Below, one piece after another: positions 30,685 through 62,840 of a stretch of 64,000 nt of DNA. Source of the stretch: a virus; the UHGV virus genome UHGV-1421865. The stretch is one strand, 5' to 3'. How positions within the stretch are numbered: position 1 is the first letter of the stretch; every line of letters starts with the position of its first letter. A program made the translations under genes and the position numbers. Below the pieces are notes generated by a model. It saw only the letters and a program-made list of their open reading frames with translations. It did not search any database and was not told where the DNA came from.

Positions 30685-31041
30685 TCACTTGAATTTTGGT
30701 TTATATGCATCATCTATATGACAATTATCGAACATAAAACGATGGTATTTTACATTGCTGACGTCCCACTTAGACAAGTCACAGCTGAATTCTTTACAAC
30801 CAGAAAACATTTTGTCCATGTTCGTAACGTTAGAGACGTCCCATTCGTCGATTTTGATGTTTCTAATACCAACCCAAACAAATAAAAACGACATGTCTGT
30901 AATCAACGACGTATCAATGAAATTGAGATCAGCATCTGGACCTTGTCGCTTAATTTCTTCCATTATAATAGAAGTAAGTTCATCTTTTGATGTAGGCGTC
31001 AATGTTGCCGATTTTGTATTTGATGTGATATGTATTGCCAT
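30685..31041 (-). CDS. DUF285-type repeat protein family member (118 aa)
   Basis: Family N-terminal module MAIHITSNTKS...ELTSIIMEEIKRQGPDADLNFIDTSLITDMSFLF, then IDEWDVSNVTNMDKMF and CDLSKWDVSNV repeats. Confidence 0.7.
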   Translation of the reverse strand: MAIHITSNTKSATLTPTSKDELTSIIMEEIKRQGPDADLNFIDTSLITDMSFLFVWVGIRNIKIDEWDVSNVTNMDKMFSGCKEFSCDLSKWDVSNVKYHRFMFDNCHIDDAYKPKFK

Positions 31042-31059
31042 TACTATTTAATCTAAATA

Positions 31060-31560
31060 TCATCTATATCCAAATAACTGTCTCATAATCCTATTTAATT
31101 CATCAACACGGTCAGACGACATTGCGTCATTGTTAAATTTTGGTTTATATGACTCCATTATAGGACAGTTATAGAACATACCAGACATATCTGTCACATT
31201 AGAAACGTCCCACTTAGACAAGTCACGGTTGAATTTGATACAACAATCAAACATGTTTTCCATGTTAGTCACATTAGAGACGTCCCACTTAGACAAGTCA
31301 CAGTTGAATTTTAGACAACCACAAAACAGGTGGCGCATATTTGTCACATTAGAGACTTCCCACTGGTCTACTTTAATGTTACCAATGGTAATCATACCAA
31401 ACAACATAGACATGTCTGTTATAAGCGACGTATCGATATGATTCAAATCGGCATCCGGACCTTGCCGCTTAATTTCTTCCCAGATAATGTCTCTGAGTTC
31501 GTATTTTGTTGTTGGTTTTATTGTTAATGATCTCGCATTTGATGTAATGTGAATCGGCAT
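31060..31560 (-). CDS. DUF285-type repeat protein family member (166 aa)
   Basis: MPIHITSNARS...KRQGPDADLNHIDTSLITDMSMLF, then three WDVSNVTNM..MF repeats. Confidence 0.7.
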   Translation of the reverse strand: MPIHITSNARSLTIKPTTKYELRDIIWEEIKRQGPDADLNHIDTSLITDMSMLFGMITIGNIKVDQWEVSNVTNMRHLFCGCLKFNCDLSKWDVSNVTNMENMFDCCIKFNRDLSKWDVSNVTDMSGMFYNCPIMESYKPKFNNDAMSSDRVDELNRIMRQLFGYR

Positions 31561-31576
31561 AGTAAAACTGTGTTAA

Positions 31577-31933
31577 TCAATAAAATTTTGGTTGCAGTTC
31601 CGGTGTCATATTAGGACAATCCTCAAAAATACCATCATATCGTTCTACATTGCTAACATCCCAACCAGACAAGTCACACTTGAAATTTTGATTTGTAAAC
31701 ATGGCGATCATATTCGTGACATTGGATACGTTCCATTCGTCTATCTTAATGTTTCCAATCTCAATCCACCAAAACAACATAGACATATCTGTAATAAGCG
31801 ATGTATCGATAAAGTTCAAATCAGCATCGGGACCTTGACGTTCCAATTCTTGTTCTATAATAGACCTCAGTTGTTTTTTCGATGTTGGTTTCAGTCTTAA
31901 TAATTTGCTGTTAGATGTGATGTGAATTGGCAT
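31577..31933 (-). CDS. DUF285-type repeat protein family member (118 aa)
   Basis: MPIHITSNSKL...ERQGPDADLNFIDTSLITDMSMLF...WNVSNVTNMIAMF...WDVSNV. Confidence 0.7.
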   Translation of the reverse strand: MPIHITSNSKLLRLKPTSKKQLRSIIEQELERQGPDADLNFIDTSLITDMSMLFWWIEIGNIKIDEWNVSNVTNMIAMFTNQNFKCDLSGWDVSNVERYDGIFEDCPNMTPELQPKFY

Positions 31934-31935
31934 GG

Positions 31936-32392
31936 CTACATAAATTTAGGTTTTAGATCATCTGTCATCTTGTCACAAAACGTGAACATACCTGCTGCAT
32001 AAATCAAACTATTATTAGACCAACGAGACAGGTCACAATTGAGATTAGAACAACCATAGAACATCTCTGACATAGTGAACCTCGTGAACTTCGGTAAATT
32101 GTACATTGGATGTATTCCAAAGAGACAAATCACAGTTAAAATACTTACAATCGTAGAACATGCCGTGCATATCAGTGACATTACTGACATCCCATCCATC
32201 GATTTCAATGTACCTTATATTTTTCCTATAAAATAAGCATTCCATATTATCTATTTCAGATACATCAATGAAATTCAAATCAGCATCCGGACCTTGACGT
32301 TCCAGTTCTTGTTCTATGATAGTCTTGAGTTCATCTTTTGTCGATGGTTTAACTATACATGATTTTGTTGTAGATGTGATGTGAATTGCCAT
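31936..32392 (-). pseudogene. Frameshifted DUF285 family member (the track splits it into 32045..32392 and 31936..32208)
   Basis: The N-terminal part MAIHITSTTKS...WNTSNV and the C-terminal part MSEMFYGCSNLNCDLSRW... are in different frames. The junction carries a ~22-nt insertion with the 9-bp tandem duplication GAAGTTCAC-GAGGTTCAC. Confidence 0.6.
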
Positions 32393-32413
32393 TTGTTCAC
32401 TGTTTATACTACA

Positions 32414-32722
32414 TCATTTCTCAAAAACACATTCAATACCGTATGCATCTGCAGCCTGGTGTTCAATCACACAACCACGTGCTTTCTCCCAACCTTTACA
32501 AAAGTAAACAAGGTCGGCCTGTGCCATCAATTTCAACGACTCTCCCAAGTACAACAATCCTTTGTTCGGTACGTTAGAATTTTCAAAGTCATTACCAAAG
32601 TAGGATTCCAGTACAGTCCAACCTATAGACTCATACCGTTCTTTGACACGATTGCGCACCGCACTGATTTCGATATTAGAAAGACCGTTCATCGGTTGAC
32701 TGATAAATACTTTCTTTTTCAT
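32414..32722 (-). CDS. Small protein, possibly DUF4406 / nucleoside 2-deoxyribosyltransferase-like (102 aa)
   Basis: MKKKVFISQPMNG...GESLKLMAQADLVYFCKGWEKARGCVIEHQAA resembles DUF4406-type phage proteins. Tentative call. Confidence 0.4.
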   Translation of the reverse strand: MKKKVFISQPMNGLSNIEISAVRNRVKERYESIGWTVLESYFGNDFENSNVPNKGLLYLGESLKLMAQADLVYFCKGWEKARGCVIEHQAADAYGIECVFEK

Positions 32723-34239
32723 TTGTTATTTTTTAATTTAATTAGACTATCGATATACGTAAGTAGTTCAGAATCAATACGTTGACCTGTATACTTAAAC
32801 TCGTCGCGTTGCTTTTTCATACGACGCTGCATTTTCTTGAACGTATATTCTTTGTCATTTTTGTACACATTCCCGTTCACCGTAACGAAATAATTCGGAT
32901 CTTTTCTGAACTTTTCTAGTTCCTCTTCGTCGAACTTTTCGCCATTTTCGTCGATTACAATGTTGTCGAACGACAGATTACAAGTTTGGATCTGTGACGG
33001 GTAAAGTGACGCGAAGTCATAACACACGTTCCATGTGTAGTGTCCGGAGATGCACTCACAGAAAGCACCTTTGTACGGTTTCTTTTCTCGAACGGTATGA
33101 TCCCAGTTGTATACAATTACTTTATTGTTATCGTAAAACTCATAGAACATGTTCGCATTGGTAATGGCTACCTGTCCGAAAGCATCTTTCAACGTAATCA
33201 TTGTACTGGTCGACATAGAACATGGTACTTCCAGTGACTTCAGTTTTCTATGAATCAGCTGTACCAACAAACTGTCGACAGCATTATAGAAATAATACCA
33301 TTCTACATCACGCTCGTAGAGTTGTTGCAACGAACCGTCGTACTTGATCTTATGTGCGTCGACTGCCCTGGACGATACATAATCCAACGAAAACGACTCG
33401 TACGGTACCAAAATTCTGTCGTACTGTTTACAGATTTCCATATAATCCAACACAACACTATGTTGAGGCGCCGGCAGGCTGTACGACGTACCGTCGAGTT
33501 CTTTCCATGCAATCTTAGTGACTTCCCTTGTCGGTGACGCATTATAGATCATGTTCTTGGCTGTAGTAGCACCGAACAGTCGCTTAATGCGTGTCGTAAG
33601 ATACATCCAGTCGAAACGATATGAATTCCACCCTGCAAGTACCGGTGTATTCGGAACTACCTTATTAAAGAATTCCTCTAACAATTCCTCTTCTGAAGAA
33701 AATGCTTTATAATATACTTTAATATAATCTTCTACTTTCTGTCCCGACTGTTCTACAATCGACATTGCAAATTTGTTGTCGCGGATCCATGAAATATATC
33801 GTTCTTTCAGTAAGTTGATAGACTCCTGCGATAGTCGATGTAGACCGTATACGATACAACTCAAATTATGTCCTACTACAGAGATAGCGGTCACTCGTTG
33901 GTCTGCGACTTCGGGGTCAGGGAACTCGTCCGATACCTCTGTTTCAATATCGAATGTATATAGATTAGGATAATTGTTCTCAAACAACGGAGCGAACTCC
34001 TCCTTGTTATTATAAATGTATTCTAATATATCAAACGTATTAGGGTTGTACTCAGATGTCTTCTTATTTACACGTTTTGCCCTTTGTCCGTCCCAGGTAT
34101 CGTACTCCCCGTCCGGGTCATATTCGTACGACGGCATATAACTAAGGTACTTAGTGATAAAGTCGCGTTTACCTTCTTTTGTAATATATGAAATACTGAG
34201 TTTTTTGTCTCGCTTATTCCAGGTTCTATCTAAGATCAT
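32719..34239 (-). CDS. Family B DNA polymerase, N-terminal half only (T4 gp43-like: N-terminal and 3'-5' exonuclease domains through polymerase motif A), 506 aa; polymerase motifs B and C absent
   Basis: Exo I YTFDIETEVSDEFPDPEVADQRVTAIS (compare T4 gp43 FDIEV..FPEP...IDAIT), Exo II WNSYRFDWMY, Exo III YNAVD and polymerase motif A CYDFASLYPSQI. The ORF stops ~85 aa after motif A. No KxxxNSxYG or YGDTDS is found downstream on this strand. Confidence 0.8.
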   Translation of the reverse strand: MILDRTWNKRDKKLSISYITKEGKRDFITKYLSYMPSYEYDPDGEYDTWDGQRAKRVNKKTSEYNPNTFDILEYIYNNKEEFAPLFENNYPNLYTFDIETEVSDEFPDPEVADQRVTAISVVGHNLSCIVYGLHRLSQESINLLKERYISWIRDNKFAMSIVEQSGQKVEDYIKVYYKAFSSEEELLEEFFNKVVPNTPVLAGWNSYRFDWMYLTTRIKRLFGATTAKNMIYNASPTREVTKIAWKELDGTSYSLPAPQHSVVLDYMEICKQYDRILVPYESFSLDYVSSRAVDAHKIKYDGSLQQLYERDVEWYYFYNAVDSLLVQLIHRKLKSLEVPCSMSTSTMITLKDAFGQVAITNANMFYEFYDNNKVIVYNWDHTVREKKPYKGAFCECISGHYTWNVCYDFASLYPSQIQTCNLSFDNIVIDENGEKFDEEELEKFRKDPNYFVTVNGNVYKNDKEYTFKKMQRRMKKQRDEFKYTGQRIDSELLTYIDSLIKLKNNK

Positions 34240-34316
34240 TGTTTATACTTAATGTTATATATAAGATATAGTACACATCGCGTGATAAATCAGTATTCCG
34301 AAACTAGTCTAATAGT

Positions 34317-34883
34317 TTAATGCCTAGTACGAATCTCAAATTGAGGATAGTATTCCTCTGGCATCTTATAACAAGCTGCAAACATTAGAAGCGCTTCAAC
34401 CTTATTGGATATATACCAACCAGACAAATCACAATTAAAGTTTTCACACATATAGAACATATTAGACGTGTCTGTCACATTCGATACATCCCAACTGGAC
34501 AAATCGCAATTAAACTTCCAACAATTACTGAACATGCCGCTCATGTTTCTAACATTAGAGACGTCCCATTCGTCTATTTTGATATTTCGGATGTCAAGTG
34601 AATTAAATAAATTAGACATGTCCGTGATCTTCGATGTGTCGATGAAATTGAGATCTGCATCTAGACCTTGATGATACAGTTCTTGTTCTATCAACGAACG
34701 TAACTCATCTTTCGTCGCAGGTCTCACTACAAGCGATTTCGTCTGAGATGTGATGTGTATTGACATGCTGATCAAATTTAGGATAATATTCAGGTAGCAT
34801 CTTAGTATACTTGTCAAACATGAATTTGTTGTGCTGAACGTTCGATGTGTTCCAACCAGACAAGTCTGATTTGAATTTTTCAC
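34317..34883 (-). CDS. DUF285-type repeat protein family member (likely start at ATG 34766, MSIHITSQTKS)
   Basis: The family N-terminal module begins at residue 40 of the track ORF. Repeats IDEWDVSNVRNMSGMF, CDLSSWDVSNVTDTSNMF and CDLSGW. It overlaps the 3' end of 34705..35409 by 62 nt. Confidence 0.65.
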   Translation of the reverse strand: MKNSNQTCLVGTHRTFSTTNSCLTSILRCYLNIILNLISMSIHITSQTKSLVVRPATKDELRSLIEQELYHQGLDADLNFIDTSKITDMSNLFNSLDIRNIKIDEWDVSNVRNMSGMFSNCWKFNCDLSSWDVSNVTDTSNMFYMCENFNCDLSGWYISNKVEALLMFAACYKMPEEYYPQFEIRTRH

Positions 34884-35409
34884 AACAGTAGAACATCGCA
34901 GACATATCCCTCACATTGGACACATTCCAATAGGACAGGTTACCGTTGAATTTTCTACAATTAAAGAACATGCACCACATACTACGTACATTAGAAACGT
35001 CCCAATAGATCAGGTCGGAATTGAAGATGCCACAATTGTAAAACATGTGTGACATGTTGGTGACATTGGACACATTCCAACTAGACAAGTCGCTGTTGAA
35101 AAATAAACACCAATCAAACATGTGTGACATATCCGTCACTTTCGATACATCCCATTTAGACAGATTACAATCTAAACAGGTACAATGACAGAACATCCAA
35201 GACATGTTTGTCACGTTGCTGACATCCCACTCGTCGATTTTGATGCTTCTGGGATTGAGTAACCAAAATAAATTAGACATGTCTGTAATCAGCGATGTGT
35301 CGATATGGTTCAAGTCAGCATCCCAACCTTGACGTTCCAGTTCTTGTTTTATGACAGAACGTAACTCGGCTTTTGTAGTTGGTCTCACTGTTTTAGTACT
35401 ACCATTCAT
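34705..35409 (-). CDS. DUF285-type repeat protein family member (234 aa, 6-7 repeats)
   Basis: MNGSTKTVRPTTKAELRSVIKQELERQGWDADLNHIDTSLITDMSNLF, then WDVSNVTNMSWMF, WDVSKVTDMSHMF, WNVSNVTNMSHMF, WDVSNVRSMWCMF, WNVSNVRDMSAMF and WNTSNV. Confidence 0.7.
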   Translation of the reverse strand: MNGSTKTVRPTTKAELRSVIKQELERQGWDADLNHIDTSLITDMSNLFWLLNPRSIKIDEWDVSNVTNMSWMFCHCTCLDCNLSKWDVSKVTDMSHMFDWCLFFNSDLSSWNVSNVTNMSHMFYNCGIFNSDLIYWDVSNVRSMWCMFFNCRKFNGNLSYWNVSNVRDMSAMFYCCEKFKSDLSGWNTSNVQHNKFMFDKYTKMLPEYYPKFDQHVNTHHISDEIACSETCDER

Positions 35410-35417
35410 ATATGAAA

Positions 35418-35696
35418 TTAAATAAAAGATGAAAGCTGTGGGTTAAGCTTAGTAAACAATTTTTGATATTCTTGTATATTCTTTTTCCATAATCCTACAG
35501 GTGTATTGTCAAGCCCACGTTCTATTATACCTTTTAATGTTTTCCACTCCTCAACAGTTAATGTTACAGTTTGCTCCGAACTTCTGTTTTCACTTCGTGG
35601 TCCACTACTTGGAGAGGAGAGGTCTTGTAGATCACATCCTGACGTCCTTTGTTCGTTAGAAGTAGGTCTTAAAATCTGCTTATTTGATACGGGCAT
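35418..35696 (-). CDS. Hypothetical protein, 92 aa
   Basis: Ser/Pro-rich N-terminus. No motif. Confidence 0.4.
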   Translation of the reverse strand: MPVSNKQILRPTSNEQRTSGCDLQDLSSPSSGPRSENRSSEQTVTLTVEEWKTLKGIIERGLDNTPVGLWKKNIQEYQKLFTKLNPQLSSFI

Positions 35697-36171
35697 AGTT
35701 TACAAATGTATAAGGTTGTTCGTTGTGCTCGTCGGCTGGATGTGACTCTCTGAATGTACACTCCCAATCATTGTAGTCGACTTTCGGGAAAAAAGTATCG
35801 GCTTCCAGTGCTACCCCTTCAATGTGTGTCAAACATAGTCTGTCTGCCAGGGGCAATGCCGCTTTGTAGATAGACGCGCCACCGATAATGAATACTCGGT
35901 CGTCATCGTACGCTCCTACTAATGCAGTCTCTAAAGAATGAAACAGATGAGTACCGGGCGGTGCTTCACGGAGCGAACGACTAACCACAAAATTACGACG
36001 ATTAGGAAGAGCACCGTTCGGTAGCGACTCGAAAGTCTTCCGTCCCATAATTACAGTGTGTCCCGAAGTGAGTGTTTTGAAACGTTGTAGATCGCCTCGC
36101 AAATGAAAAAGCATGTGACCTTCGAAGCCGATAGCTCTGTTCTCATCGAGAGCGCAAATTATTGTGATCAT
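35680..36171 (-). CDS. frd: Dihydrofolate reductase
   Basis: MITIICALDENRAIGFEGHMLFHLRGDLQRFKTLTSGHTVIMGRKTFESLP...FIIGGASIY matches the DHFR signature. The track ORF has a 13-codon upstream extension, so the start is taken at the ATG at 36171. Confidence 0.9.
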   Translation of the reverse strand: MITIICALDENRAIGFEGHMLFHLRGDLQRFKTLTSGHTVIMGRKTFESLPNGALPNRRNFVVSRSLREAPPGTHLFHSLETALVGAYDDDRVFIIGGASIYKAALPLADRLCLTHIEGVALEADTFFPKVDYNDWECTFRESHPADEHNEQPYTFVNYARIK

Positions 36172-36209
36172 ATTATATAAATTGAATCCACGATGTCGAT
36201 TTATTGACA

Positions 36210-36719
36210 TTATTTTTCAAAAACAATATACGCTATTATAGGAATGACTATGGCGCCTATAAATAATAAAACTAAAGTAGCCAGAACCCAATAAAACTCA
36301 TCTTTACTATCATTGCCTGAATTATGATCTAAGTCAACAAAGTCGGTATACCAACGAGGTAGTTTAACAATGGCATTACAATCACGGAACATGTTTGTCA
36401 TTATCGCAACATTGTTAGTGTCCCAATTGTCTAAACCGGCACCCGTAAACCTATCACAACCGTTGAACATGGATTCCATCGTCTGCACATTGCTAACATT
36501 CCAACTGTCGATTTTGATGTCACGTACATCAAGGCAACAGAACAACCAAGACATGTCGGTGATCTCTGATACGTCAATATGATTCAAATCAGCATCCGGA
36601 CCTTGACGTCGTAGTTCCTGACGTATTAGTTCCTTCAATTCATCTCGTGAAGTAGGCCGCCCGTATGCTGGTTCTGGAACATATAAAGGTCTAGTTTTTG
36701 ACGTGATGTGTAGCGCCAT
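36210..36719 (-). CDS. DUF285-type family member with a C-terminal transmembrane anchor (169 aa)
   Basis: MALHITSKTRPL...RRQGPDADLNHIDVSEITDMSWLF...WNVSNVQTMESMF, then a C-terminal hydrophobic helix WVLATLVLLFIGAIVIPIIAYIVF. Confidence 0.65.
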   Translation of the reverse strand: MALHITSKTRPLYVPEPAYGRPTSRDELKELIRQELRRQGPDADLNHIDVSEITDMSWLFCCLDVRDIKIDSWNVSNVQTMESMFNGCDRFTGAGLDNWDTNNVAIMTNMFRDCNAIVKLPRWYTDFVDLDHNSGNDSKDEFYWVLATLVLLFIGAIVIPIIAYIVFEK

Positions 36720-36734
36720 TGTAAACTACCGAAT

Positions 36735-37064
36735 TTATTGTGCTTTTACCAGATTATCTTTATTTTCTGGCTTAACCGGATTGTTGTGTCTGTCCGTTGC
36801 ATGTACACATGTACCGTCTTCTGACCATCTGTAATCACACAGCTTACCGAACTGACTGACACTACCGACAATCTCGTTGGGTACTTTTTCCATATCGACT
36901 TCTGTGATGATCACTTGTCGACCATCAGCGGTCATCATCGGTCGTTCGTCGTTAACCCATTGCATATCAACAGGTTCACCTCTTCGTTCGCTTACAACAT
37001 GTGCATCGCACCACTGTTCTAAAATGTCTCGCAATCTTCCCATATTTTTACTTAAAAATTTCAA
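36735..37064 (-). CDS. Hypothetical protein, 109 aa
   Basis: ORF overlapping the start of 37048..37476 by 17 nt. Confidence 0.4.
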   Translation of the reverse strand: MKFLSKNMGRLRDILEQWCDAHVVSERRGEPVDMQWVNDERPMMTADGRQVIITEVDMEKVPNEIVGSVSQFGKLCDYRWSEDGTCVHATDRHNNPVKPENKDNLVKAQ

Positions 37065-37476
37065 ACATCGATGCCTTATGACTCTTTACCTTTGCATACT
37101 GCTTAGGGTCGCCGTCGTCGAGCAACAACGTCATATTACGCTTATTATTGTATTCTTCTGTACACGGTACAGTAAATAGTCGGCTCAATTCAGAACACCA
37201 TACTGCGATAAAGTCACATTCACCGACGTAGTTTCTTGTCTTTTCTGTACTACCGGCCCACGATGCGGTGTTGAACTTTATATAGTCTTGTCCGTGGATT
37301 GTTCTTACACGACCGTGTTTTACTTGTACCTTATATAGCTTACCATATTCCGATTCTACGATAAAGTCATAACGTGCGTCACAGCCGTAAGGTACGTTGA
37401 CTGTATATCCTGCCTCTACAAAGCGTGCAAGAACGGCGAGTTCGGCTGCATTGCCGATTTGTTGTTGTTTTGTCAT
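37048..37476 (-). CDS. Probable PD-(D/E)XK nuclease (YraN/UPF0102-like)
   Basis: IGNAAELAVLARFVEAGYTVNVPYGCDARYDFIVE...LYKVQVKHG matches the YraN-like pattern G..aE..a..fl...Gy.v...........D.i......l..VEVK. Confidence 0.45.
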   Translation of the reverse strand: MTKQQQIGNAAELAVLARFVEAGYTVNVPYGCDARYDFIVESEYGKLYKVQVKHGRVRTIHGQDYIKFNTASWAGSTEKTRNYVGECDFIAVWCSELSRLFTVPCTEEYNNKRNMTLLLDDGDPKQYAKVKSHKASMFEIFK

Positions 37477-37612: not shown

Positions 37613-38371
37613 CTAGAGGCCACAGAGGGATCTCAATACGGTTTTGAATTCACCCGACATATTACATTTGTCACTGAGACACCAGTCGATGTAGCTCGGA
37701 TCGATTTTATGAATTTTTTGTACGTCACAACTCCGATATTTACCGAAATTGAACACCACTGCACCGTCGCGGAATGTCTTCAACGAATTGTCGGTAACGA
37801 TAATCGGTACCATTAAGTTATCGGTTTGCTCTTTTTGTTTATTAAATACTTCAAACGTAGCTTTCACGTCCGAAAGTGCGTCGTGGGCGTTTAGTCCGGA
37901 CTCTTCCATTGAATGGCCTGTGTATTTTTCATAAATACCTTCCAGGTCGGTCGGATTGATTCTGTTGTTAATCAAGAAAGAGTCGAAAATAACACGGTCA
38001 GTGAAATTAATAGACTTACCGTATCGTTTGAGTTCCTCGTTCAAGAATGGAATATCAAAGCTATTGCCATTGAATGTCAATACAGCATTCTCTTTCGGAT
38101 TACCGAAGAATTCAACAATTTGGTCTGCGACTTCTTCAAAATGGGGGTATTGTTCCAATTGTTTCGGTGTGATACCGTGTTTGAAATATGCACCCATACT
38201 AATCTTATAAGGTTGTACAGGTTGGATTTTAAGGTCGAGTTCATCAACTACCTCATTTGTTTTCGCATCGTATTTAATAGCCGAGAACTGGATAATCTGA
38301 TCCGTCTCACGATACAGTCCGGTACATTCAATGTCAAATGCGACGATATACTTGTAATTTTGACTTTTCAT
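37613..38371 (-). CDS. DEDDh 3'-5' exonuclease (DnaQ/RNase T-like; T4 DexA-like)
   Basis: Exo I IVAFDIECTGL; Exo III-like H-x4-D block GLNAHDALSDV. Confidence 0.75.
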   Translation of the reverse strand: MKSQNYKYIVAFDIECTGLYRETDQIIQFSAIKYDAKTNEVVDELDLKIQPVQPYKISMGAYFKHGITPKQLEQYPHFEEVADQIVEFFGNPKENAVLTFNGNSFDIPFLNEELKRYGKSINFTDRVIFDSFLINNRINPTDLEGIYEKYTGHSMEESGLNAHDALSDVKATFEVFNKQKEQTDNLMVPIIVTDNSLKTFRDGAVVFNFGKYRSCDVQKIHKIDPSYIDWCLSDKCNMSGEFKTVLRSLCGL

Positions 38372-39618: not shown

Positions 39619-39673
39619 TCATAATTATTTTTCTATAGTATAGTACATTTGTACAGGACAAATCAAAACCTCT

Positions 39674-39812
39674 AAAAATTTGCTCTCTGACGCACGATTT
39701 TTGTTGGACCTTACACATACTAAGGTCACTACATTTGAGTGTGTTAGAGAGCCTTAAAAGTGCCTTTACGAGGACGTTAGGTATTTACATACCAGTGCGC
39801 AAAACAGAAACT
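39674..39812 (+). repeat. Conserved structured intergenic element, copy F
   Basis: ctaaaaatttgctctctgacgcacgatttttgttggaccttacacatactaaggtcactacatttgagtgtgttagagagccttaaaagtgcctttacgaggacg...acagaaac. Confidence 0.6.
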
Positions 39813-39884
39813 GTCTAAATCAGTGCATTTTACAGAATCTACACGTACAGATTTTTACATATACAACAAATATAAACCGACACA

Positions 39885-46022: not shown

Positions 46023-46107
46023 TACTTATCAATAACAAAATAAGACGGTCTCTGGAATGAACGAGATCGTCTTATTTCAGTTATATATCGACTAAACTCT
46101 AAACGTC

Positions 46108-46250: not shown

Positions 46251-46322
46251 CAAATCAGGACAAAAAGTATGATTTATCATATAAAAACAGCTATTGTAAA
46301 TATACAAATATAGTAAATAAAT

Positions 46323-53151: not shown

Positions 53152-53171
53152 TTATTCGCTAGTATTGTTTA

Positions 53172-53810
53172 TCAGTCTTTGAATTTTGGTTGAAGTTGTG
53201 GATTAGTTCCCATATTAGGACATTTATCAAATGTCATATAATACTTGATTACTTTCGACACATCCCACTCAGACAAGTCACAATTGAAACGTTCGCAAAA
53301 ATAGAACATATAACTCATATTTTTAACATTGGTGACATTCCAAGAACTTAAATCTACATTTAGCTTTTTACACCAAGAGAACATATCTTCCATGTTTTCT
53401 ACTTTACTAACGTTCCAATTTTCTATACCTTTGCCTTCAAATTTTTTACATTCATAAAACATGAAAGACATGTTCGTTACATTAGAGGTGTTCCAATTTT
53501 CTACTCCATCGCCTCTGAAGTTATCTTGACCTACAAACATGTTTTGCATAGTAGTTACATTTGATGTATTCCACTGGTCAATTTTGATATTTCCGATGTT
53601 TAATTTATAAAACAAACTAACCATATCTGTAATCTCCGATGTATCTATAAAGTTCAAATCGGCGTTCGGACCTTGTTCTTTTAGTTCTTGTTCTATAATA
53701 GATCTGAGTTCGTCTTTTGTTTTAGGTCTCAATCTTAATGGTTGGGTATCGGGCGTAATCTTTAATCGTTCTGTGATTAAACTATCGTGAATGTATCGTG
53801 AAAGTGACAT
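53172..53810 (-). CDS. DUF285-type repeat protein family member (212 aa); 3' ~215 bp identical (inverted) to the 3' end of 58151..58696
   Basis: MSLSRYIHDSLITERLKITPD...EQGPNADLNFIDTSEITDM, then repeats. The C-terminal 70 aa are identical to the paralog 58151..58696. Confidence 0.7.
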   Translation of the reverse strand: MSLSRYIHDSLITERLKITPDTQPLRLRPKTKDELRSIIEQELKEQGPNADLNFIDTSEITDMVSLFYKLNIGNIKIDQWNTSNVTTMQNMFVGQDNFRGDGVENWNTSNVTNMSFMFYECKKFEGKGIENWNVSKVENMEDMFSWCKKLNVDLSSWNVTNVKNMSYMFYFCERFNCDLSEWDVSKVIKYYMTFDKCPNMGTNPQLQPKFKD

Positions 53811-53827: not shown

Positions 53828-55525
53828 TTAAACACCAGTACCGTCTAAAATCTTTCTAGCAACGTCATTTATTATTAAATGTTGGTTATTAGGAAACATT
53901 TGAAGTACTTCGCTTAAGTTGTCGACATAGTAGTCGTACACTTTGATATTTGTTATATTGCCAGGAAATGAATACAATACTATCTCCGATTTCTGTAATA
54001 TAGGAATATCCATGGTATATTGTTCGTGAAGCGTACTATTATCGCCGGCGGCATTGTCCATATCGAAGAAATAATGAACCGGTGCTAACTTATATATCGG
54101 TAATCGTTTATCGAAAGTGTATTTATAAGATGAAAACTCTACTGTTTTCAAATCGGGACAACATCTAAACACGACAAACCAGGTATCGCCTGTTTCCAAT
54201 TTAAGACCGCCGCTCTTCATTTTGTTTACCTTTAACGTACCGTTTTTGATATTGAATTTGAAGTCTCCAATAGAAAATAAAGGACCGTCATAGAGGTCGT
54301 CTGTCATACTGACAATAAATGATATAGTAAAAGCCTGCCCACAGAACTTTCGTTGGTATATCGTCGACGGTCGACCGAAGATCTTACTCATGTCGACATT
54401 CGGATCTTGTATATAATTAGACGAACGAACAAAATTGTACTGTGAGTCTGCGATTAAGGTTCCTTTATAATAGAGATTTTCACCCGTATTGATGTGTGTC
54501 GTTACGGTATCAACATATTTTCGTATCGCATCGCTTTCGTATACCGGTGTTAGGGTATTCGGTGCAGGTAACGGTGCTGATAATGTCTGGGTACCGGCGT
54601 CAACAGTGTCGTCGTATTCTGTAAACAAGTCCTCGTATTTCTTAGTAACAAAACTGTCTACCATCACCGAAAACTCGTCTTTCATATTAACACTGTCTTT
54701 CTCTTGGTATTTTACCAGTGCTAATTTGAACGTTGTGCCTATCCACATCAGCCCTTCCGATTTCTCTTCGTACGCACCGTTTACCATCCACATTCTCTTT
54801 GTTAACGGTATATAAATAAGATCACCTTCCATAGGTTGCACAGTATCACCAAAAGCCGTTGCAAAAGCCTCTTTTGTGACTTCTGTTTCCCAGTCGAGTT
54901 GAAAGTCCATTCCGAAGTCGGCAAATTCTGGTTTCGACGACGGCATCCTACCTTCCGGAACGACGAGTTTAATCATCTTAACACTTTCGACGTCCATCAA
55001 GGCGTATTCTTTGAATGTAAGATCCTTCGAACCGACATTGGGACTGAGTTTGAAATAGTAAACGGGAATACCGAAAAGGTCCCCTACCATATTCACCAGT
55101 TTGTTCTGTAATGCGACAGCGCCGTCGAGATTAGAATAAGGATTGAAATTGGCAGGTGTTGATTTACCGTACAAGAACTCAAAACATGACTCTTGACTAG
55201 TATTGTAGTCAATAACGTCTTCGCTGTTTATCTTTATTCCGCTAACAAGGCCTTTTATTTTAATACGAACATACAGGTCTTGACCTACTGCATTGATACC
55301 TGACAAGAACTCTTCCCACGACATATAGCACGACCAGGTAACAGTATCTAACGAATAAGCATATTCTAAACATGTCTCGTCGTACTGTGCTCCTTTATCG
55401 TCATACAAGTATATAGACGACAATTTTGACGGTGACAGCGGGAGATTGATGTTGATCACCTGGGGTACCGTCAAACATCCGGTGGCTGCATTTGTCGTTA
55501 CATCTTCCGGAATCGTAGAAATCAT
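53828..55525 (-). CDS. Hypothetical protein (565 aa), probably structural; translationally coupled to the CHAP peptidase
   Basis: Long ORF overlapping the CHAP gene start by 4 nt. No recognisable catalytic motif. Confidence 0.5.
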   Translation of the reverse strand: MISTIPEDVTTNAATGCLTVPQVININLPLSPSKLSSIYLYDDKGAQYDETCLEYAYSLDTVTWSCYMSWEEFLSGINAVGQDLYVRIKIKGLVSGIKINSEDVIDYNTSQESCFEFLYGKSTPANFNPYSNLDGAVALQNKLVNMVGDLFGIPVYYFKLSPNVGSKDLTFKEYALMDVESVKMIKLVVPEGRMPSSKPEFADFGMDFQLDWETEVTKEAFATAFGDTVQPMEGDLIYIPLTKRMWMVNGAYEEKSEGLMWIGTTFKLALVKYQEKDSVNMKDEFSVMVDSFVTKKYEDLFTEYDDTVDAGTQTLSAPLPAPNTLTPVYESDAIRKYVDTVTTHINTGENLYYKGTLIADSQYNFVRSSNYIQDPNVDMSKIFGRPSTIYQRKFCGQAFTISFIVSMTDDLYDGPLFSIGDFKFNIKNGTLKVNKMKSGGLKLETGDTWFVVFRCCPDLKTVEFSSYKYTFDKRLPIYKLAPVHYFFDMDNAAGDNSTLHEQYTMDIPILQKSEIVLYSFPGNITNIKVYDYYVDNLSEVLQMFPNNQHLIINDVARKILDGTGV

Positions 55526-57998: not shown

Positions 57999-58009
57999 AC
58001 ATTTATTTA

Positions 58010-58140
58010 TAGCGATTTTTGTGAACTGAATCAGTGCATATCATGTAGTGAATCAACATGTTTACATACAAAAAATCAATGTAGCCAATATAATTAAAAT
58101 GTGAAATCCGTTATACACTGATTTTTACATATAAGAACAA
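58010..58140 (+). promoter_or_regulatory. Cluster of TTTGTGA-N-AAAATCAGTGTA-type motifs upstream of the DUF285 gene block
   Basis: tttttgtgaactgaatcagtgcat and aaaaatcaatgtagcc, plus an inverted copy tacactgatttttac, all within 130 bp upstream of 58151. Confidence 0.35.
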
Positions 58141-58150
58141 AAGAATTCTA

Positions 58151-58696
58151 ATGTCACTTTCAACATTCATCACAGAACGATTAAAGATTACATCTAACTC
58201 TAAATCAGCTATACACAAACCATCGTCGAGAGACGAACTCAAATCTATTATAGAACAAGAACTGGAACGTCAAGGTCCGGATGCCGATTTGAACCATATT
58301 GACGTATCTTACATTACAGATATGTCTTATTTATTTTACAAATTAAACATCGAAAACATTAAAATCGACCAGTGGGACGTTTCCAATGTCACTAATATGG
58401 AAGGGATGTTTTATGAATGTAGTAATTTTGAAGGCAACGGCCTAGAAAACTGGGACGTATCGAACGTCACTACTATGGAAGATATGTTCTCTTGGTGTAA
58501 AAAGCTAAATGTAGATTTAAGTTCTTGGAATGTCACCAATGTTAAAAATATGAGTTATATGTTCTATTTTTGCGAACGTTTCAATTGTGACTTGTCTGAG
58601 TGGGATGTGTCGAAAGTAATCAAGTATTATATGACATTTGATAAATGTCCTAATATGGGAACTAATCCACAACTTCAACCAAAATTCAAACAGTAA
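58151..58696 (+). CDS. DUF285-type repeat protein family member (181 aa)
   Basis: MSLSTFITERLKITSNSKSA...ERQGPDADLNHIDVSYITDMSYLF, then repeats. The 3' 215 bp are identical to 53172..53810 in inverted orientation. Confidence 0.7.
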   Translation: MSLSTFITERLKITSNSKSAIHKPSSRDELKSIIEQELERQGPDADLNHIDVSYITDMSYLFYKLNIENIKIDQWDVSNVTNMEGMFYECSNFEGNGLENWDVSNVTTMEDMFSWCKKLNVDLSSWNVTNVKNMSYMFYFCERFNCDLSEWDVSKVIKYYMTFDKCPNMGTNPQLQPKFKQ

Positions 58697-58702
58697 TCAA
58701 CA

Positions 58703-59299
58703 ATGGCAATACACATCACATCAAATACAAAATCTCTCAGAGTAAAACCTACGGACGAAACAGAATTACGTGACATTGTCGAACAAGAGTTAGACAGTCA
58801 AGGTCCAGATGCCGACCTGAACTTCATTGATACGTCTCTTATAACAGATATGAGGGGGCTATTTTATAGTTTTAGAGGTATTAGAAATATCAAGATAGAC
58901 AAGTGGGACACTTCAAATGTTTTGGACATGCGTTCTATGTTCGGCAAATGTTACGAATTAAACACTGATCTATCTAAGTGGGACGTTTCAAATGTTAAAA
59001 ATATGTCACACATGTTCATCGAATGTTATAAATTCAATTCGGACCTATCCGGTTGGGACACATCAAGTGCGGTTAACATGGAATCTATGTTCGACAGCTG
59101 TACAATTTTTGAATCCGACTTATCCGAATGGAATACCAGTAAAGTTACCCACATGTCTAGTATGTTTCAAAAATGCTCTAAATTCGAGTCTGACCTATCC
59201 GCTTGGGATGTATCGAATGTCAAAAAGAACGGTGGGATGTTTTATATGTGTACTAAAATGATGGGTAAAAAACATCTACAACCTAAATTTAATATATAA
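58703..59299 (+). CDS. DUF285-type repeat protein family member (198 aa)
   Basis: MAIHITSNTKSLRVKPTDETELRDIVEQELDSQGPDADLNFIDTSLITDM, then five repeats. Confidence 0.7.
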   Translation: MAIHITSNTKSLRVKPTDETELRDIVEQELDSQGPDADLNFIDTSLITDMRGLFYSFRGIRNIKIDKWDTSNVLDMRSMFGKCYELNTDLSKWDVSNVKNMSHMFIECYKFNSDLSGWDTSSAVNMESMFDSCTIFESDLSEWNTSKVTHMSSMFQKCSKFESDLSAWDVSNVKKNGGMFYMCTKMMGKKHLQPKFNI

Positions 59300-59304
59300 A
59301 TAAT

Positions 59305-60081
59305 ATGTCACTTTCAAAATACATCACAGAACGGTTAAAGATTACGTCGAATACAAAATCGGCCAATAACCAACATACATTGTTTCCTAAAGATTTAAAG
59401 GAGCTCCTACCGATATTAGAAGATGAAATTAAAAAACAAGGTCCAGATGCTGACTTGAATCACATTGACGTATCGCAAATTACAGAAATGCACGATTTAT
59501 TTTATAGAATTTACATTAGAAACATCAAAGTCGACAAATGGGACGTGTCGAATGTAGTGAATATGCGTAAAGCGTTTACTGGTCATAAAGACTTTAACGC
59601 TGACCTATCATCCTGGGATGTATCAAATGTAGAGAATATGCGTAGTATGTTTGAAGGATGCCCGAACTTCAATGCTGACCTGTCAGAATGGGATGTATCT
59701 AAGTGTAGAGATTTCTGTAACGTATTTAATGGATGTGAAAAATTCAACCATGATCTGTCTAATTGGGATGTTTCTAAGGCTTGGATTACAGCAGGTATGT
59801 TTCAGGATTGTAATAGTTTTGAATCAGATTTATCTTCTTGGAATGTATCTAATGTAAAGGACATGAATAGGATGTTCCAAAACTGTTGGAAATTCAATTC
59901 CGATCTGTCTGGTTGGAATGTATCAAAAGTTGAAACAGTATCACAAATGTTCGAGAATTGTACAAGATTTAGAAGTAATTTATCTAAATGGGATGTAAAT
60001 CGTGTAAAAACTTGGTATAAGTTCAGTGCTGAGTGTCCAAATTTTAATGATAAGAGTAATTTGCCTGAAAAACTTAGATAG
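59305..60081 (+). CDS. DUF285-type repeat protein family member (258 aa)
   Basis: MSLSKYITERLKITSNTKSA...KKQGPDADLNHIDVSQITEM, then seven repeats (WDVSNVVNMRKAF ... WNVSKVETVSQMF). Confidence 0.7.
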   Translation: MSLSKYITERLKITSNTKSANNQHTLFPKDLKELLPILEDEIKKQGPDADLNHIDVSQITEMHDLFYRIYIRNIKVDKWDVSNVVNMRKAFTGHKDFNADLSSWDVSNVENMRSMFEGCPNFNADLSEWDVSKCRDFCNVFNGCEKFNHDLSNWDVSKAWITAGMFQDCNSFESDLSSWNVSNVKDMNRMFQNCWKFNSDLSGWNVSKVETVSQMFENCTRFRSNLSKWDVNRVKTWYKFSAECPNFNDKSNLPEKLR

Positions 60082-60113
60082 ATTTAAACAATACTAACTA
60101 TATTTAATACACT

Positions 60114-60965
60114 ATGTCACTTTCAAAATACATCACAGAACGATTAAAAATTACGTCAAATAGCAAATCGGCTACTAGACTAAAACCTAAAACAAGATAT
60201 GAGCTTAGTTCGTTGATAGGGGAAGAATTAGAACGTCAAGGTCCCGATGCCGATTTGAACTTTATCGACACATCGGATATTACAGACATGTCTGAGTTGT
60301 TTTCTGGGTTTAACATAGAAAACATCAAAATAGACCAGTGGGACGTTTCTAATGTCGATAATATGTATCGTATGTTTAATTTATGTACTAGCTATAATGG
60401 TGACTTGAGCAATTGGGACGTTTCTAATGTTGAGAACATGTATGGTATGTTTAACGGTTGTATGTCATTTACCGGAGAAGGTATAGGAAATTGGAATGTC
60501 TTAAATGTTACTAATATGTCGACAATGTTTATGGGTTGTAAAGTATTGAATCCTGACCTATCTGGATGGGACGTTTCTAATGTCAATGACATGCGCGCTA
60601 TGTTCGATATGGCAAATTCTTTTGAAGGGAAAGGTTTAGATAAATGGCGTACCACCAAGCTTACTGATACAAAACAGATGTTTTATGGTTGTGATAATTT
60701 CAATTGTGACTTGTCTGACTGGGATGTGTCTAACGTAACAACCATGTTATCTATGTTTGAGTCTTGTTATAAATTTGATTCTAATTTGGGTAAGTGGGAC
60801 GTTAGCAATGTGACGGATATGAAATTTATGTTCAGAAACTGTTATAATTTCAAAGGCATCGGTTTGGAAATGTGGAATACTTCAAATGTAATTACAATGA
60901 ATTCAATGTTCGACGGTTGTAAGAAATTAAATGTCGATTTAAGTTCTTGGAATGTTTGTTTCTAA
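60114..60965 (+). CDS. DUF285-type repeat protein family member (283 aa), 3'-truncated relative to its paralogs
   Basis: MSLSKYITERLKITSNSKSATRLKP..., then eight repeats. It ends abruptly at ...KKLNVDLSSWNVCF-stop, where paralogs continue TNVKNMSYMF... Confidence 0.65.
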   Translation: MSLSKYITERLKITSNSKSATRLKPKTRYELSSLIGEELERQGPDADLNFIDTSDITDMSELFSGFNIENIKIDQWDVSNVDNMYRMFNLCTSYNGDLSNWDVSNVENMYGMFNGCMSFTGEGIGNWNVLNVTNMSTMFMGCKVLNPDLSGWDVSNVNDMRAMFDMANSFEGKGLDKWRTTKLTDTKQMFYGCDNFNCDLSDWDVSNVTTMLSMFESCYKFDSNLGKWDVSNVTDMKFMFRNCYNFKGIGLEMWNTSNVITMNSMFDGCKKLNVDLSSWNVCF

Positions 60966-61044
60966 AGTAGGACCTTATAATACATTTAAGCTAAAATCTG
61001 GCACCCACCCAAATTCAATATCTAAAAATAACACAGTTTCACTA

Positions 61045-61506
61045 ATGTCACTTTCACAATACATCACAGAACGACTAAAGATTACATCTAATAGTAAATC
61101 TGCAACAGTGACACCAAAGTCAAGAGACGAACTCAGATCTCTTATAGAAAAAGAATTAGAACACCAAGGCCCAGATGCTGATCTAAATTTCATTGATACA
61201 TCTGAGATTACCGATATGTCATACCTGTTCGAAGACTGTAATATCAGAAACATCAAAATAGACGAATGGGATGTCAGCAATGTAACTGATATGCGCGGCA
61301 TGTTTGTTTGGCGTAAAGATTTCAATTGTGACTTGTCTCGTTGGGACGTATCTAACGTCACAAACATGACTGATATGTTCAACACCTGTAAAGAATTTAA
61401 CTGTGACTTATCCGGTTGGGATGTATCTAATGTTGTTAAGCATTTTAGTGTATTTTTTAACTGTGATAAGATACAAGATAACATGACTCCTAAATTCAAT
61501 AAATAA
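61045..61506 (+). CDS. DUF285-type repeat protein family member (153 aa; the track ORF 60952.. has a spurious 5' extension)
   Basis: MSLSQYITERLKITSNSKSATVTPKSRDELRSLIEKELEHQGPDADLNFIDTSEITDM, then three repeats. Confidence 0.7.
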   Translation: MSLSQYITERLKITSNSKSATVTPKSRDELRSLIEKELEHQGPDADLNFIDTSEITDMSYLFEDCNIRNIKIDEWDVSNVTDMRGMFVWRKDFNCDLSRWDVSNVTNMTDMFNTCKEFNCDLSGWDVSNVVKHFSVFFNCDKIQDNMTPKFNK

Positions 61507-61523
61507 ATAAATAAATCAAAAAT

Positions 61524-62051
61524 ATGAGTTTACAAAAATACATCAAAGAAGCACTGTCGCCCGGTAGCTTTAATAACAAACCTACTACGACACAAGAACT
61601 CAGAGATCTTATAAAAGAGGTGTTTGATAAACAAGGACACAATGCCGACCTGAACTTCATCGATACGTCGTTGATTACTGATATGTCCGAACTATTCAGA
61701 GACCTTTATCCCCAAAACATCAAAATCGACAAATGGGATGTCTCTAATGTGACGAAGATGAACCACATGTTTGTCGATTGTATGTATCTTAAAACAGATA
61801 TTTCTGATTGGGACACCAGCAATGTTACAGATATGCAATATATGTTCTGTAATTGTAGTTACTTCAACGGTGACTTGTCCGGTTGGGACGTATCTAACGT
61901 TACTAACATGGATTTGATGTTCAAAGGTTGTGCGCGACTGGAATGCGACTTATCCTATTGGGATGTCGACAATGTAGAAACTCACTTCGACGCTTTTGAA
62001 GGTTGTGAAAAGATGACCGATGAAATGCTACCGAAATTTGAATTTTCATAA
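61524..62051 (+). CDS. DUF285-type repeat protein family member (175 aa; variant N-terminus)
   Basis: MSLQKYIKEALSPGSFNNKPTTTQELRDLIKEVFDKQGHNADLNFIDTSLITDM, then four repeats. Confidence 0.7.
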   Translation: MSLQKYIKEALSPGSFNNKPTTTQELRDLIKEVFDKQGHNADLNFIDTSLITDMSELFRDLYPQNIKIDKWDVSNVTKMNHMFVDCMYLKTDISDWDTSNVTDMQYMFCNCSYFNGDLSGWDVSNVTNMDLMFKGCARLECDLSYWDVDNVETHFDAFEGCEKMTDEMLPKFEFS

Positions 62052-62840
62052 ATGAAACTACAAAAATTCATCACAGAACGGTTAAAGATTACGTCTAAGT
62101 CAAGACCACTCAAACTAACAGAACGTACATTGTTTCCGACTAACTCCGGGCAACTTAAAGCTGTAATAAAACATGAATTGAAACATCAAGGTCCGGATGC
62201 CGATTTGAACCATATCGATACTTTTAAGATCACCGATATGTCTAAATTATTTGAATCTCTACAAATCGGAAACATCAAAATCAACGAATGGGACGTCAGT
62301 AATGTCACTAATATGAGGTTCATGTTTAGCGGGCGTACTAAATTCAATTGCGACTTGTCCGGTTGGGACGTCAGTAATGTAACAGATATGGGGTTCATGT
62401 TTAGTAGTTGTACGTTATTTGAGGGTGGTGGTTTAGATCATTGGGATACGTCCAACGTGGCAGATATGGAACAGATGTTTTACGGTTGTGAGAATTTCAA
62501 TTGTGACCTATCTAGTTGGTCTTCGCGTGTCTCTAATGTGACAAATATGAACGGTATGTTTTCTGGAGCTGATAAATTTGAAGGTAATGGTTTAGATCAT
62601 TGGGATACGTCCAACGTGACACGCATGCGTGCTATGTTTAAGGGTTGTAAGGTTTTTGAAAGCGACATATCCGGTTGGGATACGTCAAATGTTGAGGACA
62701 TGTCGTATATGTTTATGGACTGCGGTAAGTTCAAATCAAATCTATCAGGCTGGAACGTATCTAAATTAGGCGGTCCTCAGATTAATATATTCAAAAATTG
62801 TCCTAAGATGATACCTCCGTTGAGACCTCGATTTGAATAG
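62052..62840 (+). CDS. DUF285-type repeat protein family member (262 aa)
   Basis: MKLQKFITERLKITSKSRPLKL...KHQGPDADLNHIDTFKITDM, then seven repeats. Confidence 0.7.
   Translation: MKLQKFITERLKITSKSRPLKLTERTLFPTNSGQLKAVIKHELKHQGPDADLNHIDTFKITDMSKLFESLQIGNIKINEWDVSNVTNMRFMFSGRTKFNCDLSGWDVSNVTDMGFMFSSCTLFEGGGLDHWDTSNVADMEQMFYGCENFNCDLSSWSSRVSNVTNMNGMFSGADKFEGNGLDHWDTSNVTRMRAMFKGCKVFESDISGWDTSNVEDMSYMFMDCGKFKSNLSGWNVSKLGGPQINIFKNCPKMIPPLRPRFE

Follow-up and report, generated by a model that had tools for sequence, protein, structure and literature searches.

The DUF285 gene family of the window

The stretch analysed here is 64,000 nucleotides of the virus genome UHGV-1421865 (the window), and our subject is a family of small genes in it whose products carry repeats of the Pfam family DUF285 (PF03382). 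A six-frame scan with a hidden Markov model (HMM) of the N-terminus that precedes the repeats detected 16 copies of a shared N-terminal module, with E values from 8e-26 to 3e-11 and the next best match at 0.028. These copies make up 15 genes and one 44-codon remnant, and DUF285 repeats follow every copy except that of the remnant (53017-53151). All 50 repeat cores found with a regular expression lay inside 30685-36719, 53172-53810 and 58151-62840, with none elsewhere in the window. The Pfam profile matched 10/10 members tested at 62-260 bits against a 25-bit cut-off (E about 1e-17 to 1e-78). The four longer members tested with NCBIfam TIGR02167 (PARCEL repeat) passed its 30-bit cut-off at 30.5-131 bits, member 36210-36719 barely so (30.5 bits), and a member of 118 amino acids (aa) fell below it (25.9 bits) because it has too few repeats. 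In PHROGs the members fall into three families of unknown function. A preliminary description of this DNA had proposed a DUF285 family in three blocks, which these matches bear out. It had also counted 16 genes and a further remnant; sixteen modules do exist, and one of them is the remnant itself, drawn there as 49 codons at 53002-53151. Its assignment of the proteins to the BspA-like or LRR_5 type was not upheld, no LRR_5 (PF13306) match being obtained in the Pfam scan at E ≤ 0.01. We are highly confident of the family identity and of the module anatomy described below.

The proteins are 115-283 aa long and acidic (isoelectric point, pI, 4.3-6.5), with about one framework cysteine per repeat. 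No signal peptide or other export signal was encountered at the member N-termini, all of which are hydrophilic leaders, and the sole hydrophobic segment among the members is a C-terminal one. A profile search of 5.8 billion proteins retrieved 1,144 with the N-terminal module, many of them on contigs of 205-228 kb, and scaffold ERZ28625903 scaffold_2 holds at least 20 members within only 40 kb sampled. A tblastn search of GenBank phages with the 74-aa N-terminal module gave no match, and the full leader is restricted to metagenomic relatives.

The carrier is a jumbo phage of about 220 kb, known only from metagenomes. Metagenome contigs of 187-223 kb carry near-identical DNA. Two segments of the window, 6 kb and 24 kb long, gave no nucleotide match when compared by megablast with 50,697 GenBank phages, and the phage is therefore uncultured. 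The window has the features of a part of a jumbo phage genome. It holds 14 tRNA genes (23706-29540), genes for topoisomerase II, dihydrofolate reductase (DHFR), thymidylate synthase, an NAD-dependent ligase, methyltransferases and a protein weakly resembling the T4 neck protein, and a family-B DNA polymerase in two genes on the minus strand, 3.4 kb apart (exonuclease subunit 37613-38371, polymerase subunit 32719-34239). Its identity to the polymerases of Sphingomonas phage PAU, huge uncultured phages, Lak phages and Bacteroidota jumbo phages does not exceed about 30%, PAU (30%) having the closest DNA polymerase among cultured phages. From these polymerase relatives and from the lack of Shine-Dalgarno sequences we guess that the host may belong to the Bacteroidota.

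Members begin with one of two leaders, as the preliminary description had noticed. The short leader, M-[APS]-[IL]-H-I-T-S-N-T-K-S, is found on 7/15 genes; the long leader, M-S-L-S-K-[FY]-I-T-E-R-L-K-I-T-S-N-T-K-S, occurs in eight copies in the window including the remnant; and one gene has a truncated leader of neither form. Block 1 lies on the minus strand. It comprises a 118-aa member with the short leader MAIHITSNTKS, repeat 0 (defined below), repeat 1 and a C-terminal cap (30685-31041; Pfam DUF285 6.8e-19), a 166-aa short-leader member (31060-31560; Pfam DUF285 1e-30, N-module HMM 8.6e-18) and a second short-leader member of 118 aa (31577-31933). The next, also with a short leader, is frameshifted (31936-32392), as had been described and as the translations agree; its N-terminal part is an open reading frame (ORF) at 32045-32392, its C-terminal part lies in another frame at 31936-32208, and the 115-aa product of the former is called identically on seven contigs. 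Further along are a 149-aa member with the short leader MSIHITSQTKS (34317-34766), which starts at an internal ATG of ORF 34317-34883 and is called with 149 aa in the related locus L020, and the 234-aa member with the truncated leader MNGSTKTVRP (34705-35409; Pfam DUF285 7.5e-58), which has lost its stop codon and overlaps the next gene by 62 nt through a C-terminal extension. The last is a 169-aa short-leader member (36210-36719; Pfam DUF285 4.2e-17) with the C-terminal hydrophobic anchor YWVLATLVLLFIGAIVIPIIAYIVF; of the transmembrane anchor claimed for it, a hydrophobic stretch of 25 residues at the end is what we observed. DUF285 genes share the interval between the two polymerase subunits with DHFR (35680-36210) and a PDDEXK_5 gene (37048-37476).

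Block 2, also on the minus strand, consists of the remnant, whose long leader MSLQNFINERLKITSNTKS gives the best N-module HMM match (8e-26) and which is followed by about 400 nt without repeat relics in a three-frame reading, and of a 212-aa member (53172-53810; Pfam DUF285 2.6e-49) with a long leader carrying a 5-aa insertion. Directly upstream of the latter is the neck-like gene 53828-55525 (PHROG head closure, 1.4e-8; Pfam T4_neck-protein, 18.1 bits, under the 25-bit cut-off). Block 3 lies on the plus strand. Its members are a 181-aa long-leader protein with MSLSTFITERLKITSNSKS (58151-58696; N-module HMM, TIGR02167 69.3 bits), a 198-aa protein that is the sole short form in this block (58703-59299; Pfam DUF285 6.4e-52), and long-leader proteins of 258 aa (59305-60081; Pfam DUF285 2.4e-61), 283 aa (60114-60965; Pfam DUF285 4e-69), 153 aa (61045-61506, starting at an internal ATG of ORF 60952-61506), 175 aa with the variant leader MSLQKYIKEALSPGSFNNKP (61524-62051; Pfam DUF285 2e-46) and 262 aa with MKLQKFITERLKITSKSRP (62052-62840; Pfam DUF285 1.7e-78). 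The 283-aa member is 3'-truncated, as the preliminary description had it, its translation ending in LSSWNVCF before the stop. A 174-codon antisense ORF (60975-61499, minus strand) runs through member 61045-61506 with a periodic pattern of its own, LDTSQxDKSQLxSL. It is reminiscent of the ORFs on the opposite strand that have been discussed for the coding repeats of PARCELs, and it is unlikely to be a gene.

About 70 repeats with a period of 25/26 could be delimited, and the 55 canonical ones gave the consensus NxDLSxWDVSNVxxMxxMFxxCxxF. Framework positions mostly have an entropy of 0-1.2 bits, with W7 and F19 invariant, and positions 2, 6, 13, 14, 16, 17, 20, 21, 23 and 24 reach 2.4-3.7 bits. 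Each protein is predicted to be a short solenoid resembling leucine-rich repeats (LRR), with about ten hypervariable surface positions per 25-aa repeat, and the fixed framework with defined variable positions probably reflects a diversified protein-binding scaffold. The comparison of N-module and repeat bodies that had been suggested was run on the 15 paralogues of the window as Nei-Gojobori proportions, since in those parts of relatives that were sampled no protein exceeded 58% identity to any member. Synonymous sites were saturated (proportion of synonymous differences, pS, 0.55-0.88), and the nonsynonymous proportion (pN) was about 0.3 in the cap and 0.14-0.19 in the repeat framework. Low pN with saturated pS indicates purifying selection on the proteins.

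N-terminal module, leaders and gene turnover

The N-terminal module of about 60 aa is composite and consists of a flexible leader of 10-25 aa, a cap strand and helix, and a degenerate repeat 0. It had been called identical in all members; column identity averages 55% over the first ~62 residues of the alignment. The Pfam DUF285 alignment begins at about residue 37, at profile position 15, and the segment DADLNFIDTSxITDMSxLF follows the canonical pattern xDLSxWDVSNVTNMxxMF, with NIKIDxWDVSNV as the start of repeat 1. Because the Pfam match already covers this segment and the pattern is the same, we read it as repeat 0 and not as an extra module. AlphaFold models of two members were computed with alignments of homologues as input. 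In the short form of 118 aa at 30685-31041 (mean predicted local distance difference test, pLDDT, 90.9), residues 1-10 are disordered (<50) and are followed by a short strand, a confident helix at 19-33 and one strand per repeat. The 153-aa long form at 61045-61506 (pLDDT 90.8) has a helix at 3-11 (~64), residues 12-19 (KITSNSKS) disordered and the cap helix at 27-41. In these models PxTKxELxxIIxQELxRQG is the N-terminal cap, a predicted strand and helix packed on the solenoid.

The core of the cap, P-x-TK-x-EL-x-x-II...ADLN-x-ID-x-S-x-ITD, is also present in Campylobacter phage CP21_043 and in an ORF of a Lak phage. In the IMG/VR loci L007-L010 it is internal, at about residue 226-258 of ORFs of 401-412 aa, and nine DUF285 genes in tandem in L014 lack a leader altogether and start directly with MEKKIVANNGNIKxIVxxEIxRLGNxADLNHIDVS. 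Since cap and repeat 0 occur in unrelated phages, mid-ORF in L007-L010 and leaderless in L014, they are structural and not specific to this phage. About 45 of the 60 module residues are the domain's own cap and first repeat, and only the first 10-25 are extra. The cap packing in the AlphaFold models and the occurrences in CP21_043, the Lak phage and L007-L010 led us to reject the whole 60-aa module as a signal. The shared module of the preliminary description accordingly stands in that a conserved segment extends beyond the first repeat, with its last part being repeat 0; the structure prediction proposed there resolved it into a disordered or weakly helical leader followed by cap and repeat 0. 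Its idea of a shared targeting signal fails for most of the 60 aa and finds real though circumstantial support for the first ~10 residues of the long leaders, that is, in about half of the family. The L014 genes (2797-10543) overlap their neighbours by 16 nt and lie 2 kb upstream of genes for an S77 protease, a putative scaffold and a Gp23 capsid protein; this array is an independent DUF285 expansion in another phage lineage.

What sets the long leader apart is a motif of the (L/I)-x-E type, present as [IV]-[TNK]-E in 8/8 long leaders and absent from the seven short-leader genes and the gene with the truncated leader. A search for [FYW][IVLT]xE[ARSG] near the N-terminus returned 8 of the 537 ATG-initiated ORFs of the window, six of the eight being long-form members. 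The long leaders of relatives keep x-L-x-x-[FY]-[IV]-[NT]-E-R-[LI]-[KH]-I despite insertions of 5-15 residues before the pattern. In the alignment the initiator Met of the short forms coincides with the putative P1 Glu of the long forms. Residue 2 of the short forms is invariably A, P or S, which favours Met removal; a mature short form (AIHITS...) would thus start at the same place as a cleaved long form (RLKITS...).

The head module of the clade to which the window belongs was reached through a DUF285 match, P0063; when the L013 capsid protein served as the query, all matches fell in the L013 clade. In L027, L029 and L030 a Peptidase_S77 protease (the T4 gp21 family) and a Gp23-family major capsid protein are encoded, followed by a tail sheath gene; the protease gene of L029 lies at 7431-9347. 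The capsid protein of the clade begins M-[FY]-[ILV]-[TN]-E in 108/120 homologues (MFLTE 78, MFITE 18, MFINE 8) and has two more conserved x-x-E sites, at about residues 18 and 43. In T4, as read from NC_000866 (a slash marks the cut), the sites are FLTE/A in gp23 (residues 62-65), LLRE/S in gp24, MKTYQEFIAE/A in IPII and IPIII and ...TITE/A in IPI, the cleavage positions being taken in part from the literature (PMC9026906, PMC5694885). By its sequence the long leader thus belongs to the motif class of the protease-processed head proteins of this lineage and is very similar to the N-terminus of the capsid protein.

A comparable arrangement was seen in the distant clade L012/L013, which also has S77 and Gp23 genes. 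Downstream of the capsid gene, at a distance of 3-11 kb, eight ORFs begin with MK..[KQ].F[ED].F[IL]NE[ASN], five of them DUF285 and three non-DUF285, and the capsid protein itself starts M.L[LI]NE[SA] in 118/119 homologues. In L029 a non-DUF285 ORF right after the capsid gene starts MLTLKDYIYE/S, which is only loosely like the leader. An ORF with a SET domain (protein methyltransferase-like) adjoining the capsid gene of L013 (6588-7070) starts MDFKSFEEILE/S, and this enzyme may be packaged because its leader resembles a capsid-targeting sequence.

The two leader forms segregate by neighbourhood, as we saw on comparing the window with the loci of five relatives. Short forms are found among replication genes, in block 1 of the window and in the 20-kb locus L022 with its 12 members. 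Long forms are found at neck and head genes, in blocks 2 and 3 and in L021, L025 and L026; members flank gp13-/gp14-like neck genes in the window, L021 and L026. The genes for the head protease and the capsid protein are immediately preceded by six DUF285 genes with long-type leaders in L027 and by nine in L029.

The membership of the family changes faster than its surroundings. Between the window and L022 the flanking core genes are syntenic with 81-87% protein identity, and at the same locus the DUF285 members differ in number and length, the best cross-genome pairs being at most 58% identical. L022 differs in content from the window downstream of the exonuclease and PDDEXK genes. A metagenomic protein from another sample, P0011, matches the window gene at 32045 over residues 1-43 (43/43) and the adjacent gene at 31577 over residues 44-118 (72/75), with the crossover within the shared EQELERQGPDADLNFID tract; this chimera is direct evidence of unequal recombination through the conserved N-module. 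The view that the family evolves fast and is not a static feature is strengthened by these comparisons, the first of which is the presence/absence analysis that had been suggested. Within the window the paralogues are 60-78% identical in DNA, the exception being a 332-nt inverted repeat (53164-53495 and 58373-58704, found by repeat search, 89% complementary) that spans the 3' halves of 53172 and 58151. No other tract of recent duplication or conversion was seen in the family. At this repeat metagenome assemblies are interrupted, and an exact-protein look-up off the right end of the window gave only a 7.5-kb contig that is broken there.

Possible roles of the family

We propose that the family, which occurs throughout the clade, supplies diversified LRR-like binders, the long forms of which would be processed by the prohead protease, packaged in the head and injected. 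The long leader, M-x-L-x-x-[FY]-[IV]-[TN]-E followed by R-L-[KH]-I-T-S-N-T-K-S, would act as a T4-style capsid-targeting propeptide that a gp21-type (S77) prohead protease cuts after the Glu, and the long forms would be loaded into proheads and delivered with the DNA like the T4 internal proteins. The short forms, which begin exactly at the proposed cleavage point, would remain non-packaged and act inside the infected cell. The conserved N-module also serves as a homology tract for unequal recombination that shuffles and deletes members. Cleavage, packaging, injection and host proteins as targets are what we infer from motifs and gene neighbourhood, and the mechanism as a whole, packaging included, is offered tentatively, as plausible and yet slightly more open to doubt than to belief. 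We think it rather doubtful that the system goes further and forms an LRR-based injected repertoire, in which dozens of binders per genome, carrying an S77-trimmed propeptide that mimics the capsid N-terminus, would neutralise variable host factors, with the leaderless paralogues intracellular and the N-module as recombination handle.

Several observations count against packaging. The [IL]-x-E motif carries little information, and the protease and capsid genes were seen in relatives and not in the window. The full leader occurs in the clade of the window only on DUF285 proteins, bar the one loosely similar head-module ORF, and the six-frame HMM scan found it on no non-DUF285 ORF of the window (best non-family match E 0.028). 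The members have a pI of 4.3-6.5 compared with 8.9-9.5 for the T4 internal proteins, and 7/15 genes have a short leader without the motif, one a truncated leader and one a tail anchor in the membrane. The leaderless arrays near head genes in L014 mean that proximity to head genes alone needs no targeting peptide. At the nucleotide level, the first ~10 codons of the long forms in the window have a pS of 0.19 and a pN of 0.22, compared with a pS of 0.55-0.82 downstream, which points to nucleotide-level constraint or 5' gene conversion besides peptide selection; the first 11 codons of members are 42% A and 10% G, and the 5' ends of other window genes are likewise 42% A.

These nucleotide-level points, and the acidic, cysteine-rich character of the proteins, which suits the cytoplasm, would also fit a family of purely intracellular host-takeover or anti-defence binders, none of them packaged, in which the leader is a favourable A-rich, G-poor translation-initiation region, passed on at each duplication and kept alike by gene conversion, and its likeness to protease sites is coincidental. 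Many members lie among replication and nucleotide-metabolism genes, and no Shine-Dalgarno sequence, promoter or other common motif was found upstream of the 16 starts. However, the peptide pattern (L3, aromatic 6, [IV]7, [NT]8, E9, R10, L11) is kept in divergent relatives despite codon change and insertions of 5-15 aa, other genes have A-rich 5' ends with unrelated peptides, the capsid protein begins with the same motif, the long forms cluster at head and neck genes, and the L013 leader is common to non-DUF285 ORFs. An exclusively intracellular family is possible, though we lean against it.

The same neighbourhoods admit a role outside the head. External decorations or adhesins of the virion (Hoc- or BspA-like), whose leader docks on capsid, neck or fibres and whose solenoids bind host-cell or mucosal surfaces, would account for members flanking the neck genes, and bacterial DUF285/PARCEL proteins are surface proteins (PMC2996958; NCBIfam names). 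DUF285 repeats also occur in giant jumbo-phage ORFs (OBP_145, among structural and baseplate genes; PAU gp103, D3_0120 and the pir03-type ORF; PMC7765460), and two DUF285 proteins were found in virions of the algal virus AaV (PMC7507832). A flexible leader of 10-20 aa is, however, small for a docking domain, its motif matches protease sites and the capsid propeptide, which are internal and transient, 15 to more than 30 different small decorations per virion would be unusual, and one framework cysteine per repeat with no secretion signal does not suit the outside; we judge such a role improbable. Even more remote is the view that the genes are largely selfish or neutral repeat DNA (PARCEL elements) of little selected function for the phage, which spreads and decays in hyperplastic regions by recombination. 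In keeping with it are the copies that are frameshifted, truncated or reduced to a remnant, the unequal crossover behind P0011, the long antisense ORF 60975-61499 through a member and the description of PARCELs as part of the mobilome (PMC2996958). Saturated synonymous sites with a pN of 0.14-0.33 in cap and framework point instead to purifying selection; most copies are whole, closely spaced and oriented like their neighbours, and the family is kept across clades whose capsid proteins are only ~60% identical.

The proposed packaging of the long forms has its closest precedent in T4, whose internal proteins share only the capsid-targeting sequence (PMC3012670, PMC9026906). Like IPI, IPII, IPIII and Alt (Mullaney and Black 1996; PMC3012670, PMC9026906), the long forms join a short shared N-terminal leader, which ends in a putative site of the (L/I)-x-E type (the gp21 cleavage logo), to diverged bodies. 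Genes for a gp21-family S77 protease and for a gp23-family capsid protein are present in the clade, related phages differ at the loci, and the proposed role is again the delivery of anti-host proteins with the DNA. Unlike the T4 proteins, the DUF285 members are one repeat family and not unrelated folds and are acidic and not basic, and half of them lack the cleavage motif. Phage SPN3US has a 20-member head paralog family B, and gp53 and gp54 of its family A have an identical 15-aa N-terminal propeptide (PMC5694885). As with these SPN3US families and the phiKZ inner-body proteins, a jumbo phage with a split DNA polymerase carries a large paralog family whose copy number varies between relatives, with a conserved N-terminal propeptide, here a putative one, that bears protease motifs on diverged paralogs. 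Unlike those families, ours has no sequence relation to pfam12699/family B, its motif is of the T4-like class, [ILV]-x-E after an aromatic residue, and not A/S/G-x-E, and the SPN3US assignment is backed by proteomics.

The DUF285/PARCEL repeats of Mollicutes, Listeria and other microbes are found in proteins of the cell surface and have been tied to the mobilome (Roske et al. 2010, PMC2996958). The window family resembles PARCEL (PF03382, TIGR02167) in its amphipathic 25-26-aa repeat, variable repeat number, hypervariable hydrophilic positions, multiple copies and association with recombination and horizontal transfer. It differs from the bacterial proteins, which are mostly lipoproteins or membrane proteins with signal sequences, in that its members are small and without a signal peptide, with a phage-specific leader, an N-cap and a single C-terminal anchor among them. 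A virus-encoded DUF285 multigene family is also known from the giant algal virus AaV (Kratosvirus quantuckense), where at least 38 genes, with duplications, take up 13% of the coding regions and two products are in virions (PMC10720644, PMC7507832); that virus, unlike the present phage, is a eukaryotic nucleocytoviricot with larger proteins, and the logic of shared leader and protease site is not reported for it. Cultured jumbo phages, myoviruses like those discussed above, carry DUF285 repeats in single giant ORFs of 1,700-6,100 aa (PMC7765460), examples being Vibrio pir03 ORF200, C-ZP2022_115, PAU gp103, OBP_145 and Aeromonas D3_0120, whereas in the window they are split over at least 15 small genes, each with its own leader and caps. 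A limited full-text search of the literature turned up no account of small, leader-bearing DUF285 proteins forming a multigene family in a phage.

The injected repertoire, if real, would be the first cargo system of a phage head to be described that is built on a repeat scaffold and diversified combinatorially. Multigene families of repeat proteins, barely described in phages, characterise the host-range and immune-evasion genes of poxviruses and giant viruses; that jumbo phages with T4-type heads may load a large, fast-changing set of binders by a short propeptide is a directly testable idea, under which packaged and non-packaged forms of one gene family would be told apart by about ten residues. 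The family is a compact natural diversified LRR-like scaffold (118-283 aa), and the candidate leader could load cargo into phage heads. Were the leader irrelevant, the locus would still be a clean case of unequal recombination driving the turnover of a phage gene family.

Other features of the window

The first gene past block 3 (62869-63381, plus strand) has no Pfam or PHROGs family match and begins MKQEFIYN, which is loosely like the T4 capsid-targeting sequence MKTYQEFIAE, probably by chance. The T4 late-promoter consensus TATAAATA occurs 20 times in the window compared with 9.4 expected, a number reached in 0/100 shuffles. Several copies lie just 5' of gene starts, which suggests T4-like late transcription; examples are 10667-10674, 20451-20458, 58004-58011 (minus strand) and 59295-59302, and only one DUF285 member is preceded by the motif.

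A 164-nt direct repeat (39660-39823 and 46095-46258, 76% identical) flanks an ORF of 2,045 aa (39885-46022), for which no PHROG family match and no Pfam match above the cut-off was obtained. Inside the tRNA cluster, where the ARAGORN call at 24118-24188 has an odd two-base anticodon, lies a TnpB/IS605 OrfB-like gene (27112-28251, minus strand) in two ORFs, one of 284 aa with HTH_OrfB_IS605 and OrfB_IS605 domains and one of 93 aa with a Cas12f1-like_TNB domain. Another gene in two pieces is that of the NAD-dependent DNA ligase, with an N-terminal part at 51910-52602 and a C-terminal part at 49846-50958 (minus strand), and the thymidylate synthase gene (50958-51926) sits exactly between the two halves and overlaps each by 1-17 nt.

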